DNA from: Octopus vulgaris
Taxonomy: Eukaryota
DNA length: 64,000 bases
NCBI GenBank assembly: GCA_951406725.2
Contig: OX597821.1
Location: forward strand, 91,822,001 to 91,886,000
Direction of reading: 5' to 3'
This document shows, one piece after another, positions 55,841-64,000 of this stretch. The translations under genes were made by a program, and so were the position numbers. The notes beneath the pieces were generated by a model that searched no databases, was not told where the DNA came from, and saw only the letters and a list, made by a program, of their open reading frames with translations. How positions within the stretch are numbered: the first letter of the stretch is position 1; each line of letters begins with the position of its first letter.

Positions 55841-56424
55841 AACATCATTGATCAAACACCATACCTGAGTGTTAATGGATAATAATGATGAAACTAACCT
55901 ACATAGGAATAACTGATGGCTATCATGTGTCTATAACAAAGATCTCTTTATGCTTATGTAGGTCATTCAGATTTCATGCAAATTCCTCAACAGGATAGAA
56001 ATAAATTACCTGTGAAAGTAGCATCATTGTTTTATTGTCGACCAAATCAATTTATTAGTTTGCAATAATAAGTTTTTTATTGAAAGAGATGGTGCGCAGT
56101 CCTATTTTCGTACAAAATAAATTGTACAATTTATATTTATATGTTTATATATATTAATGTAATTCAAGCTGATCTCTCAGCATAGCCTCTCAGCAATATT
56201 ATTTTTCTGTTATTATTTTACTGCCACAAATGTTCTTCTTTTCACAAAATTTATTCTTTATGGATAGTTTAAACAATCTTGCAAAAACCGCTTTGAGAGA
56301 CCTATACGTTATAATCACTGATACCATGGAAACATAATAGCAAAATTATATTGCACAGTGTAGTTACTACTGAGTGCAACTTGTAAACTCATTCCTCTAC
56401 ATTTAGAATATTTCTGTTTGCAAA

Positions 56425-56466
<42 letters not shown>

Positions 56467-56599
56467 AAAAATAAATGTGTATCTTTCTTTCACAGACCCC
56501 TTTAAATGAAACTTGTGAACTCCTGCTTCCAGAACACTAATCTAAATAAAATAAAATTCATAAATAACAAAATACTTTCCTAAAATAAAAACATCCCCA

Positions 56600-57897
<1,298 letters not shown>

Positions 57898-58552
57898 GAT
57901 GCTATTTATATTTCATCTTCTGCCAAGAAATCCTACTCAAAATTTACAGATAGATCTTTTGAAAGAAATGCTTAATTTTGTTCAGCTGAAATAATTTACC
58001 TTTATTTGAAAACATCACTTATCTTAATTTGAAGTGATAATCTAAAATGGAGTATTTCATTTTTTCTTATTTAATTTTCTTTCCTTTTATTTCATTCCAT
58101 ATTGCTGCTTGTTTTTTGTTTGTCTTATATATATATATATGTATATTTTTTTTCTTTCCATTTATTATTCATGGAAAGTGTATATGGAAGAATTGTGCTT
58201 TTGAAGAAGTGAATTGCAATGATGCTGTAGTTGCATAGTAGCAGTATCGTAATATCTTTTGGTGGTTCTGGAAGATGATAAAATGATGTAGATGAGAATT
58301 TGATTGTTTAACTTTATAGTTAATGGAAAAATTGTCCTGATTTTTTGCCTCTTTTAATTACCAGATACTAGATATTCTCTTACTTTTACCCCATTTATGT
58401 CGTTTCTTTTTTGTTTTTGGTTTTGTTTTTCGATTCTTCCGAAGAAACAGGGTAATTATCTATTAGTTTTTGAGAGTTTTTCTTTCTAATATATCCTTGA
58501 TATTCTCATTACAATTTTAAAAATAATTTGATATATTGTCTCTCTCTCGCTC

Positions 58553-59040: not shown

Positions 59041-60559
59041 ATATAAAGATATATAATAAAATATCATAAGAGATTTCACCCAGAACTCTGCAGATTAATG
59101 ACAGAAGACAAGAAAGTTACTTGTTTAAAATCATATATGGTCACAGCATATGTAACTTAAAACTTTGTCTACATATTGAAATAACAGTAAGATATGTGAG
59201 TTGGACAAGATATGAGGCAGGTAACATGTAAGTCAAATATTCATATTGGGTGTTCATATTATTTGAGTTCCAGGATACGTAGGTTCAGTTCACTTGCATT
59301 ATTATGAAAAAAAGTTAAGGTAATGATCTGGCAGAACTGTTAGTATGCTGAACTAAAATACTTAGCGGCATTTCATCCATTTTTATGTTCTGACTTAATT
59401 CTACTGAGATCTTTTATCTTTCTTCTTTTTGGAGTCAATAAAATAAGTATCAATCAGGTAGTAGGGGGTAAATGTAATTGTCTGCTTCTCATCCCCCAAA
59501 TTTTCAGGTCTTGTGCTATTATTTGAAAGAATTATTACAAAAGCATTTAAGATATTTAATATGCAAGAACTCCGCATGGCAACAAGTAATTAGGATGTAC
59601 TGGATATCAACTAGTCACCAGGATGCATGCAATAACTCTGATTAACAATTGCTTACAACTGAAAACCATAAGTCTCTATAACTTCAGAGATCTCTTATAA
59701 ACAAACAAAAAAAATCAATTATTAGGAGCAAGACCAGGTATTTATGTTCTAATGCTGAGAAGACATTGAGACGAAAAAGAGAAAGAGAAGGAGAGAGAGA
59801 CCAAGAAAGATAGAAAGAAGGAGAAAGAAAGATGCAGAGACACTTAAATAACTGAAAGCTTCTTGATAGTAAAGTACCAAACTTCAACATACACCGATAT
59901 AACAAAAACAAGAAGCAGACAACTTCTAAAAAATTCATTAGTTGATAGTTATGTAAAGACACAGGATTACAATAGCTTTGCCTTTGGAAGTCTTCAGATA
60001 AAATGTTATCTGTTGAAATTTTAAAAGAAATCTTAGAACAATATAATTCTCGTGTCTCTGGTATTGTATTACAAAAGACTAAAACCGTTGCAGATCAGCT
60101 TCCAGTAAAATGCTTATAAATCAATTTACGATCATTGAAAAATGAACTATAGAAATATTTGCAATATATTTAACAAAAAGAGAAAGACTATAAGGATAGC
60201 AAAGGTAATTAGCAGAAAAGATGAGATAATAAGGACAACAAAACAATAATAAATATAAAAAAATCAGAGTCAGTCAAAGAGTGAAAGAGCTTTTGTGATA
60301 CAATGGTTTAAACCAGCATAAGACATAGAGACATACAATGCTATGCACGTTCATGAACATAAATACAAATATATACAAAAATATAAATATATTCGTTTGT
60401 GAGTATATAATTGTTTGTGTCAGTGTAAATATATAGGCAACATATATGTAACATTGTTGGTGCATACATTTTTCAATGTGCAAATATATTTACATACATA
60501 CATACATATATGTGTAATTATATATGTGTATTGTTTATATATGTATATATGTGTAATTT

Positions 60560-60960
60560 CAATAAAGAACAAAATAAGAATTTTTAATACTAACGTAAAA
60601 GCAGTGTTATTGTATGGGGCTGAGACATGGCGAACAACAGTTAAGTCAAATAAGCAAATACAATCATTCATCAACAGATGCTTGCATAGTATACTTAAAA
60701 TTAGATGGCCCGAACACATAAGCAATATGGAGCTATGGCAAAGAACAAATCAAGTTTCGATTAGGGATCAAATATCTAGGAAAAAGTGGAAGTGGATTGG
60801 TAGCACAAATAGAAAAGACACACCAAATGTAGCGAAAAGTGCTTTACAGTGGAATTTGGATGGATATAGAAAGAAAGGTGGGCCTAAGAACTCGTGGCCA
60901 ACACAAAAGGAACTAGAGAATGGGGTGGTGGCTGAGTATAAGTACAGAAGCGAAAACATT
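60560..60960 (+). pseudogene. RTE-clade LINE ORF2 3' fragment
   Basis: KIRIFNTNVKAVLLYGAETWRTT..IQSFINRCL.SILKIRWPEHISN.ELWQRT..KWKWIG..ALQWN..G.RK.G.PKNSW. Confidence 0.88.
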
Positions 60961-61019
60961 TTGCGACATGGAATTCAATTATAAGTGGCCTATACTCCGT
61001 GTTGGAGGGTTAGAAGCAG

Positions 61020-61067
<48 letters not shown>

Positions 61068-61084
61068 GTATGTATGTATATATA

Positions 61085-62709
61085 CAGTTGCGGCCAAAAT
61101 GTTCAGAACGGCATTGTTTTCGTCAGAAAAGTAGATATAATTTTTTATCAAAGTTGTTTTATATTCTATAATTTTCACAGACAATAAATACAATATTATT
61201 TGTTATTGCCTGAGATTTCGGTGTAATTTGAGAGGATAATACAAAAGTTATGGATGATTTAGTGATTTACTGCAAAACCCATGGCGGCCAAAATGATCAG
61301 GACGGTTGCTTTTACTCCGTGTTTTAGTATATTTAACCGGCGAACTCTAATGTTTGGAATTTGTTTACGTGACGGTTCGTTTACTAAACATTAGTAAGAA
61401 TATTTGCAGTGTACTTTGTTAATATAATGCCACTTACTCCGTTACCAATTCGTCAGCAGATTATTAAGCTTCGAAGGAAGGATAATTTAAGTATTGGATC
61501 TATTGCAAAGAGTAACAAGTCAAAAAGTGTTGTACACGGTATTCTTAAGGTCTACGATGATTGTGGTTCGTGTGAAGCAAGAAAGTTTACAGGTAGGCCA
61601 AGGAAAACGACCAAGAGAGAAGATCGTGCTATGGTAAAGTTGGTCAAAAAGGATAGATTTAAAACTGCTGCTGCTGTTTCTCGGAAAATGAGCATTGTAT
61701 TGAAGAAAACTTTATCTCGAAAAACTGTGTCTCGTCGTTTAGTTGAACATGACCTACAAGCAAGAGCACCTGCAGTGAAGCCACTGATCAGCTCCAAGAA
61801 TAAAAAGTGTCGTCTTACCTTTGCAACCGAACATGTGTTGTGGTCTCAAGAAAAATGTCAAACGGTGCATTTCAGTGATGAATCTAAGTTTATGCTATTT
61901 GGCTCAGATGGGAAAAGGTACGTTCGTAGAAAAGTAGGTGAAAAATTGTTGCCTAAATGCCTTAAGACCAGTGTTAAATTCGGTGGAGGAAGTGTCATGG
62001 TTTGGGGAATGATATATGGAGATTGTGTGGGCCATTTGGTGCGATTACATGGAAAGTTAAATGCAGGAGTTTATAAACAACTTGTAAAAGATCATGTCTT
62101 GCCTGTGCTGAGAAATTCAACTGAGCGACCACCCATATTCATGCAGGACAATGCCCCATGTCACAAGGCTAAGGTGGTCATGAACTTCCTCAAGGCTGAA
62201 AAGATTATTGTTATGGATTGGCCAGCTCAAAACCCAGATCTCAATCCTATTGAAAATGTGTGAAATATTCTAGGAGAACGTTCGAAAGCCAGAAATCCTA
62301 AAACAACTGAGCAATTATGGAATGCCCTTCAGGAAGAATGGAATAAGATCACCCAGCAAGAAATTGAAAATTTAATTTCCTCATGCAGTCGAAGATGTCA
62401 GAGTGTGATTGAAGCTAAAGGGCTTCACAGTAAATATTAAATAATTCCAGTATTCTCTGTCATTTTTGATTATTTTGTTATTTTTTCAACCGTTCTGATC
62501 ATTTTAGCCGCCATGGGTTTTGCAGTAAATCACTAAATCATCCATAACTTTGTATTATCCTCTCAAATTACACCAAAATCTCAGGCAATAACAATTAATA
62601 TTGTATTTATTGTCTGTGAAAATTATAGAATATAAAACAACTTTGATAAAAACTTATACCTACTTTTCTGACAAAAACAATGCCGTTCTGAACATGTTGG
62701 CCGCAACTG
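61085..62709 (+). mobile_element. Full-length Tc1-family DNA transposon (IR/DR type), 1625 bp, TA TSD
   Basis: Begins TA|CAGTTGCGGCCAAAATGTTCAGAACGG and ends CCGTTCTGAACATGTTGGCCGCAACTG|TA. Inverted terminal repeats are ~220 bp (61085-61308 vs 62487-62709), each with an outer GCGGCCAAAATGTTCAGAACGG and an inner GCGGCCAAAATGATCAG(G/A)ACGG direct repeat. A transposase ORF lies between them. Confidence 0.97.
61427..62440 (+). pseudogene. Tc1 DD34E transposase with one premature stop (TGG>TGA at 62261-62263)
   Basis: From ATG 61427 (MPLTPLPIRQ): N-terminal HTH, GRPRK, FSDES, GGGSVMVWG, QDNAPCH-34 aa-NPIEN. The same frame continues past the TGA as NILGERSKARNPKTTEQLWNALQEEWNKI...EAKGLHSKY* to 62440, giving 337 codons. 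Confidence 0.95.
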
Positions 62710-62900
62710 TATATATGCATATAAAATTTATATAAACAGAAATTTGCAATGTTTTACCAAAAGGGACAATTACAAATGTCACTAAACGTGACTAGGGTGT
62801 TAGGAAACACTTACATTACTAGAAATAAGAGCTAAGACTCTCTAATATTGTAGTTAATGCACATGAATAGAAACATGTACAGTAACAGGCACCATAATCG

Positions 62901-63003
62901 TCCGAAAAATACCGATCGAAAATTCTTAATACTGATGCGTCAGTTTCGGCAATTTTCGTTGCCTCATCAGTTAAGACTGCTCAGTTGTTCGGTTCTTTCC
63001 GGA
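62901..63003 (-). ncRNA. Type I hammerhead ribozyme (core 62924-62976)
   Basis: Minus strand reads TCTTAA-CTGATGA-GGCAA(CGAAAA)TTGCC-GAAA-CTGA(CGCA)TCAG-TA-TTAAGA. The core is complete, stems I/II/III pair perfectly and the cleavage triplet is GUA. Distal stem I extension is TCCGGAAAGAACCGA/TCGGTATTTTTCGGA. Confidence 0.88.
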
Positions 63004-64000
63004 CTCACTTCACATTCAATGTTTATGTTTTCGTCATCCAAGTAAATGGATGATTTAGCGATTCGCAAATGTGTATATATGCTTATAAATATGTGTGTAT
63101 ATTTGTATATCTGCATGTAAGTGTACATATATTAGGGCACGTTGATTTTCCATACTTTTGTAGTTAATGAGTTTGAATTAATCGAGATAGTGAGAGCTTA
63201 ATGTGAGAATAACTGACAAAAAAGATCTATCTCTCTAGCTTTAACAGTATTTTGAGGAAACTGTTTCACAAAAATTCAAAATACTGTAACCAAAAAACAT
63301 CGCATTTTCACCATTTTCGGTCGAAAAATACATGTTATAGTCATTTGAAAAATCCAAAAGAAATGTTGCATCTTTATTGAAAACGAGTTAAAGCATGTAA
63401 AAACTTTATAGAGTCAAGTAAGACAAATTTAGATACCAAAATCATAAGTTTCACCGTAAGAGCCCTTAGAAGCAAAGGAAACCCTCTTACAGTGGCTTAG
63501 GGCTTTGGCCAGAATGAGTTTGTGCCTTGATTCGAGTCCATAAACAGTCTCTCTTTGTGCTTTTCACTTTCATTCTGTCTTTTTCTCTGTCCAATTTCGA
63601 TTTATCAACTATTATCCATAGCTTGTAAGTCAAGGACGAGGGCATAAGCAAGACTTGCCCCAAGACTGGAAGAAACATCACTCATGATCAATTCCATAGC
63701 ATATCTTGGGGTGGGGTTTCAAAAAGCTTTAAGCTCCAATTGGGTGCCTCCTTGGCTTGAAATCGTCATCATTAGATGACTGAAATAATAAAAAAAAACT
63801 AAAACAAAATTACTGAAGAGAAAATGGGGAAGTGAGGAGAGGAATATGAGACAAAAAGTAGAGATAAATTAGATTAAAAATAGATTCAGATGTAGGGAAA
63901 AATATTACATTTTCTGATTTTCCCGAGCTGGATCCCAAAGAAATATCTTGTGAGAATGTGGAGGCAAGTGTGGCCAAGTCCACTTCCTGCTACTGTTGAA

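Follow-up and report, generated by a model that had tools for sequence, protein, structure and literature searches.

The segment 62901..63003 of the window (the whole 64-kb stretch of DNA analysed here) reads on its minus strand like a self-cleaving ribozyme, which raises the question of whether the motif is genuine, what kind of element carries it and how that element was copied. An earlier note on this DNA had proposed a hammerhead active as a monomer and held by a loop II pseudoknot. Our analysis makes it probable that the segment belongs to a decayed solo copy of a 362-nt, protein-free hammerhead repeat, most likely a non-LTR retrozyme that was copied into the genome by Penelope-like enzymes (reverse transcriptase and endonuclease). 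Its ribozyme is predicted to be inactive in the monomer and active in the dimer.

The hammerhead motif and its repeat family

A base-by-base check of the sequence placed a type I hammerhead on the minus strand at 62976-62924, with a distal helix extending to 63003/62901, and every hammerhead element claimed in the earlier note was found at its place. The motif begins with the 5' strand of stem I (62971..62976), which forms six pairs in the majority sequence of the repeat family described below (family A), and continues with the catalytic core CUGAUGA (62964..62970), for which the predicted alternative partner, in an inactive monomer, is the 3' strand of stem III. Stem II and its loop come next (62948..62963, with five pairs between 62963-62959 and 62952-62948 and the loop II sequence CGAAAA at 62958-62953), then the core GAAA (62944..62947) and helix III with loop III (62932..62943, stem III pairing 62943-62940 with 62935-62932). 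The UA and the cleavage site, predicted from the sequence to lie between 62930 and 62929 in a GUA triplet (62929..62931), precede the 3' strand of stem I (62924..62929). Past stem I lie an internal loop and a further helix, Ib. The 3' side of this region (62916..62923) carries the AUU of that loop and includes UUUUCG at 62922-62917, and its 5' side (62977..62984) carries changes at 62984 and 62983 that weaken helix Ib in the window copy. The distal helix that the note had described was also recovered, 63003-62989 pairing with 62915-62901 (5' strand 62989..63003, 3' strand 62901..62915).

This hammerhead was the single match to the type I descriptor in the window, and 100 Markov-simulated windows, searched on both strands, gave four loose matches, one with stems of at least 5/4/3 bp and none with stems of 6/5/4 bp. 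The region has a folding z-score of −3.63, better than 200 of 200 shuffles, and its lowest-energy fold is not the hammerhead: in it the core CUGAU is paired with the 3' strand of stem III. The Rfam check suggested in the earlier note gave no match at the gathering score for the window hammerhead; a scan of 501 nt with E up to 10 returned no hammerhead, whereas in a scan of 116 nt the core matched Hammerhead_3 below threshold, with 28.7 bits (cut-off 48.5) and E 9.5e-5. The window copy has the CUGANGA, GAAA and UH core of the type I class, which is intact in 31 of the 62 family A rows compared, as well as three helices with helix I open-ended, and there is covariation between family A and its sister family B. 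Judged from these sequence features the motif is a genuine type I hammerhead, and cleavage is predicted.

The hammerhead sits in a 362-nt non-coding repeat unit (62719..63080, minus strand) that is present here as a solo copy. Other copies match 62710-63080 and stop there, and the element span of about 62720-63070 given in the earlier note was correct within 10 nt. In the numbering used for family A, unit position n corresponds approximately to window 63081-n and the cleavage site is position 152. The window unit has a GC content of 34% (34-37% across four family A copies), the only frame listed for it is one of 63 codons, stop to stop and in antisense, and no reverse transcriptase plus GIY-YIG ORF was found in the family A unit. 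Searches of the 2.8-Gb genome gave 611 first-look candidates for the motif and 1423 for the whole unit, of which 40 were scored per search. The genome search that the note had called for thus revealed a multicopy family with defined boundaries, and our results support its proposal of a short retroelement of about that size containing a type I hammerhead, the element being non-autonomous. The exact 34-letter core pattern occurs at four places in the genome; an exact 35-letter pattern had no match in metagenome contigs.

After dropping 11 loci that repeated a genomic place and three antisense self-matches, we retained 62 hammerhead-bearing family A rows. They diverge from the per-column majority by 10.8% on average (range 5.8-17.6%), and 21% of their CpG sites are changed. 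The other full-length copies among those scored are 79-84% identical and, because none of the scored copies is young, family A looks inactive. The window copy, at 11.1% from the family majority, looks by this measure like a decayed insertion rather than a young element, and as a solo copy it is likely a fossil with partial activity at most. Loop II reads CGGAAA in 32 of the 62 rows and CGAAAA in seven. A 2-nt deletion at unit positions 93-96 is linked with a U at position 103 in 15 of the 62 rows, and a loop III variant is 2 nt shorter with the palindrome kept; the linked variants point to several source subfamilies. Of 24 sequencing-run rows two, from one study, contained the stretch. The contigs of two runs presumed to be RNA comprised scattered, diverged family pieces only, with no joint among those listed that would indicate a circle, and have no bearing on expression.

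Sister family B and selection on the ribozyme

A diverged unit adjoining a Penelope endonuclease site led us to the sister family B, which has units of ~345 nt, 1101 first-look candidates, a mean divergence of 14.7% and the same layout as family A (loci L100-L129, for example L101:1480-1799 on the minus strand and L122:1408-1761 on the plus strand). Its hammerhead has an extra U before stem II, and helix III is closed by a 1-nt loop. The majority sequences of the two families are 76-79% identical outside the ribozyme region and 67% identical inside it, while the 15 pairs of helices I-III comprise eight that are identical, seven that are changed on both sides and none that is broken. Because family B keeps 15 of 15 pairs, seven of them through double changes, the sequences indicate that the hammerhead was under selection in the source elements, and this comparison is the strongest sign of it. 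The covariation check proposed in the earlier note came out in favour of the core, which has fewer substitutions than expected, and of the compensated A/B stems, but not of the loop II pseudoknot, which neither is conserved nor covaries.

Core substitutions in family A, counted with the CpG-prone G12 left out, numbered 9 against 25.6 base-matched expected in the 28 rows of the full-unit search and 19 against 30.3 in the 34 rows of the first search. The stems were no better conserved than the rest of the unit in the less biased family A set (82/801 against 568/6215), and covariation within family A was marginal. Both families keep an A-rich loop II and UU in the stem I internal loop, which may take part in a tertiary contact between helices I and II through non-canonical pairs. 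A further type I hammerhead, at L140:661 (+), lies upstream of a GIY-YIG match and possibly represents a third family; its stems measure 6 and 5 bp, and its helix III, CUCGAG, is palindromic.

Selection could also have acted on the window copy itself, had the host recruited it (as an intronic ribozyme, say) and thereby kept it intact. It is one of only two of the 62 rows in which the core and all stems are kept, the other being L004:1503-1608 (+). It carries a compensated pair at 62993/62911, and over 62923-63074 it shows no difference from a contig of a sequencing run that bears the label of a second organism. However, a contig of the flank (63045-63200) is equally identical in that second-organism run, so the identity over 62923-63074 is uninformative on selection. 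The copy also stands 11% from the majority, like other copies, and we estimate that ~3-7% of decaying copies are intact by chance, the intact ones being what draws notice. Moreover, no host exon was identified near the window copy among the 72 of 189 frames scanned, which held a transposase, a DUF6451 piece and one sub-threshold match only. We find host co-option barely credible.

Predicted monomer and dimer folds and the proposed loop II contact

A perfect 12-nt palindrome spans helix III and its loop in the family A majority and in 18 of the 62 rows; in the window copy it is broken by one CpG-type G-to-A change at 62936. In predicted folding of the majority monomer, linear or circular, stem III had a probability of 0.01 and the core-blocking pairing one of 0.98, while the dimer, in trans as well as in an in-cis tandem, formed the double hammerhead with a probability of 0.96-1.0. 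The family B majority behaved congruently (monomer 0.01, dimer 0.97-0.99), and the window copy gave 0.31 for stem III in the monomer and 0.47-0.53 for the intermolecular helix III of the dimer. When individual copies were folded, L004 (family A) and L101 (family B) followed the majority pattern, but the active dimer fold was not obtained for L005, a near-intact family A copy, or for L125 of family B; circular-fold z-scores were mixed, from −0.8 to −4.8 in six copies. In both families, then, the monomer is predicted to be inactive and the dimer to be an active double hammerhead, a prediction made with nearest-neighbour secondary-structure energies in which the gap is only 2.6-3.0 kcal/mol and tertiary contacts lie outside the model. 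Two of the compensated helix III pairs of family B flank its 1-nt loop, an arrangement that is impossible within one molecule, so that full pairing of this helix requires two molecules. Cleavage of dimers by way of a palindromic helix III has already been described (PMC4209133; PMC3088659). What is distinctive here is that a 4-bp helix III that looks monomer-competent is nevertheless predicted to be outcompeted. The claim of the earlier note that the ribozyme is monomer-competent, unlike the Penelope type, is on this prediction doubtful, with the monomer core-blocked and the active fold found in dimers.

In the model put forward in that note the hammerhead is active as a monomer and owes its stability to a 6-bp loop II pseudoknot of the type described by Perreault et al. 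(2011, PMC3088659), a pairing predicted there for ~40% of natural hammerheads. The complementarity that it had noticed is real in the window copy, where six Watson-Crick pairs can join loop II to UUUUCG at 62922-62917, the pairing that defines the type being at least 4 bp from loop II to the strand beyond stem I. With the six pairs present and helix Ib weakened in this copy (duplex −3.0 vs. −0.7 kcal/mol), the pseudoknot is physically possible, and stem III is more probable here than in the majority (0.31 vs. 0.01). Five of the six pairs are possible even in the family A majority, and in shuffles the pseudoknot structure (4/500) did no worse than the extended stem (9/500). Nonetheless, the complete pseudoknot occurs in 1 of the 62 family A rows, the window copy, and one of its pairs is unpaired in 57. 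Two departures from the majority are required, A at 62956 and U at 62920; they are found separately in six and four rows and together in one (G+C 50, A+C 6, G+U 4, U+C 1 and A+U 1, the last being the window copy). Independent columns predict 0.39 complete rows, with P = 0.25 for at least one, so that the pseudoknot occurs about as chance gives. Contigs from two public runs favour the majority letters (95-96% of depth at 62956 and 89-91% at 62920), and family B has no matching pseudoknot in that register.

The strand that would serve as pseudoknot partner is engaged otherwise in the family A majority: below a 3-by-3 internal loop it pairs with 62984-62980 as helix Ib, a perfect 5-bp helix (duplex −4.7 vs. 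−1.7 kcal/mol) that is all Watson-Crick in 23 of the 62 rows. Pair counts within the family do not tell helix Ib and the pseudoknot apart as complete structures, a distinction that comes from the per-pair rows alone. Another register of loop II, shifted and of 4 bp, holds in 49 of the 62 family A rows but was rejected because it is mismatched in most family B rows. The window copy thus resembles the pseudoknotted hammerheads of PMC3088659 in offering six possible pairs from loop II to a strand past stem I, but differs from those described there in that the pairing is neither conserved nor covarying in family A and competes with helix Ib. From these sequence comparisons it may form in the window copy as a private accident; as a tertiary contact of the family it is unsupported, and we judge a monomer-active, pseudoknot-stabilised ribozyme to be decidedly unlikely. 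If cleavage is fast at all, the contact behind it is likely one between loop II and the internal loop of the extended stem I rather than the 6-bp pseudoknot.

Insertion layout and a probable Penelope-like partner

Among 53 distinct family A loci, 26 contain head-to-tail partial tandems, 16 have an inverted piece on the 5' side, 16 have a strongly alternating purine-pyrimidine microsatellite as their 3' flank, and 25 have their 3' end at unit position 357-361. Most often the order is an inverted piece, a 5'-truncated copy, a full copy and a TA/CA repeat. Partial tandems, 5' inverted pieces and microsatellite targets make up the insertion layout of Penelope-like elements (Craig et al., 10.1101/2021.04.23.441226), and the family A insertions show this signature. 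The tandems, inversions and flanks are directly observed, as are the size and ends of the unit, the copy family and the compensated sister family. No long family A arrays were seen, with at most about two full units per locus within 1.5-kb flanks; L055 is a natural locus with two units, and the window copy itself has no tandem partner.

The upstream pieces of the 26 tandem loci start at unit positions 2-140 (11 loci) or 221-301 (15 loci). None of them starts at the cleavage site (position 152) and 11 of the 26 run through it, indicating that reverse transcription passed an intact junction; we infer that the template carried that junction as a circle or an uncut multimer. No upstream start fell between unit positions 141 and 220, just 3' of the rod and within it (26 loci only), an interval that may reflect stalling of the reverse transcriptase at the rod base.

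In the cycle that we propose, a transcript through two units would form a double hammerhead by pairing of its palindromic helices III, and both GUA sites would then be cleaved. Ligation would close the freed 362-nt monomer into a circle, which would escape cleavage because CUGAU of its core is taken up by pairing with the 3' strand of helix III. After nicking a TA-rich target, a Penelope-like enzyme would prime at the AT-rich end of the unit and copy more than one unit length, either by going round the circle or by following an uncut multimer, and so produce the 'truncated copy plus full copy' insertions observed. We advance only tentatively, and with more doubt than conviction, the stronger claim that the two sister retrozyme families share a built-in switch, in which helix III blocks the monomer core with its 3' strand so that circles survive, while paired palindromic helices III free both cores so that multimers are cut, and that Penelope-type reverse transcription round a circle made by the ribozyme left the 5' inversions and the insertions longer than one unit as its direct scars in the genome.

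A search for GIY-YIG sequences gave 6136 candidates in the genome; 16 of the 150 sites scored lie in 781-aa frames, one of which carries RVT_1 plus GIY-YIG. The local Penelope-like elements have a pLTR layout between TA repeats, the same as the family A and B units. We infer the mobilising element rather than identify it, because none of 72 sites (of the 6136 candidates) had a terminal repeat homologous to family A or B downstream of GIY-YIG. The 74 stretches at these sites gave a single match, to a family B copy that lies next to an unrelated Penelope piece and on the strand opposite to it. In six of the 74 stretches a minimal U3-A8 hammerhead lies downstream of the endonuclease; these belong to Penelope-like elements and have a palindromic CAUG helix III (L072, L074, L075, L078, L083 and L089). 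A young Penelope-like family (L095:430-5672, L096 and L097) has 781-aa reverse transcriptase plus GIY-YIG frames and 456-nt terminal repeats that are 99% identical, together with an upstream frame of 333-479 codons that gave no Pfam match in the one of three scanned. A copy of another family (L098:1821-4983) has a 766-nt 5' inversion at 100% identity, and its 3' repeat contains, by eye, a minimal hammerhead with C at position 4.

The insertion layout shared with local Penelope-like elements would also be expected if the units were solo pLTRs left by 5'-truncated insertions of an old autonomous element, with no independent retrozyme. Homology between retrozymes and pLTRs has been reported in Xenopus (Li et al., 10.64898/2026.07.22.740005), and only 72 of the 6136 endonuclease candidates were checked for a homologous terminal repeat. 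Yet at the 26 tandem loci the end of the unit joins the unit's own start and not an ORF, sharing between loci falls to near zero outside the unit, and Penelope ORF pieces occur in just 3 of 94 loci (L019, L100 and L107). Each of the pieces inspected, at L019 and L100 (the L086 site), has a 3' end of its own, and a TA tract precedes the unit; the upstream fragment at L019 was considered as a parent and rejected, having its own 3' region with the TA tract at its end. We regard the solo-pLTR explanation as unlikely, if less so than the pseudoknot model.

A retrozyme copied by Penelope-like machinery, the reading that we prefer, has clear relatives. Animal non-LTR retrozymes include mussel repeats of 350-390 bp, and Penelope-like elements have been proposed as their mobiliser (Cervera and de la Pena 2020, PMC7229834). 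Families A and B fit this group as an additional member: they share with the retrozymes of that work a type I hammerhead, a protein-free, low-GC unit of 170-400 nt, many copies, head-to-tail junctions and coexistence with Penelope-like elements, the corresponding values for family A being 362 nt, a GC content of 34-37% (below 45-50%) and tandems in 26 of 53 loci. They differ in that, in place of long arrays, mostly solo copies or one to two units are seen, which show 5' truncation and inversion of the Penelope type; 'inverted' or 'truncated' has no occurrence in the main text of PMC7229834. Family A further differs in its 4-bp helix III with a predicted core-blocking alternative, in being old and decayed, and in being known here from genomic copies rather than from circular RNA.

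The partial tandems, 5' inverted pieces and microsatellite targets (10.1101/2021.04.23.441226), as well as a palindromic helix III suited to dimer cleavage (PMC4209133), are shared with Penelope-like pLTR hammerheads, and family B resembles these also in its extra base between A9 and stem II (PMC4209133). In contrast to Penelope-like elements, the units lack a reverse transcriptase or GIY-YIG ORF and, in place of a minimal motif, have a canonical 6-bp stem I that carries a long extension. In sequence they are not homologous to the local pLTRs that were examined, in which the hammerheads detected are minimal variants of the U3-A8 type. Like the retrozymes of Xenopus (Li, Clavereau and Pollet 2026, 10.64898/2026.07.22.740005), ours are non-autonomous hammerhead units with many dispersed monomers and a proposed Penelope machinery. 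The Xenopus case is one of co-occurrence and homology, whereas here there are insertion scars and the parent is missing, and by the two-unit rule of that work the solo copy in the window would not qualify as active. The available text of Li et al. mentions neither molluscs nor palindromes, and our search of the octopus and cephalopod literature found no paper apparently describing families A and B, which supplements, Repbase or Dfam may hold. In these sources (10.1101/2021.04.23.441226, 10.64898/2026.07.22.740005, PMC7229834), as far as they cover the subject, the enzyme that moves animal retrozymes and the role of the hammerhead in Penelope-like elements stand as open questions. Penelope-type insertion scars without any ORF in these families bear on the former, and the monomer-off, dimer-on behaviour is a sharp and cheap prediction on the latter.

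Finally, we described the surroundings of the window copy. A 16-nt direct repeat, 15/16 identical, flanks it on the 5' side (63074..63089) and on the 3' side (62710..62725, overlapping the AT-rich unit end); as a target-site duplication it is an uncertain candidate, because the repeats are of low complexity, and this was examined at the window locus only. In non-LTR retrozymes such duplications, when present, are longer than 4 bp. A separate Tc1-type DNA transposon (61085..62709, plus strand) is inserted at a TA in the microsatellite adjoining the 3' end of the unit, and the TA/CA microsatellite continues beyond it at 61021..61084. The transposon has inverted repeats of ~225 nt (96-97%), each with two internal direct repeats, and Pfam matches to HTH_Tnp_Tc3_2 and DDE_3, its transposase frame being interrupted after 62260. 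The DUF6451 match lies in a frame at 60403-60981 (+), which we take to be the 3' piece of a LINE reverse transcriptase. Elsewhere in the window, a weak Gaa1 match at 1753-2151 (−), with 20.8 bits against a Pfam cut-off of 28.6, may be due to chance, and the region 56001-58000 is very AT-rich (GC 0.18).
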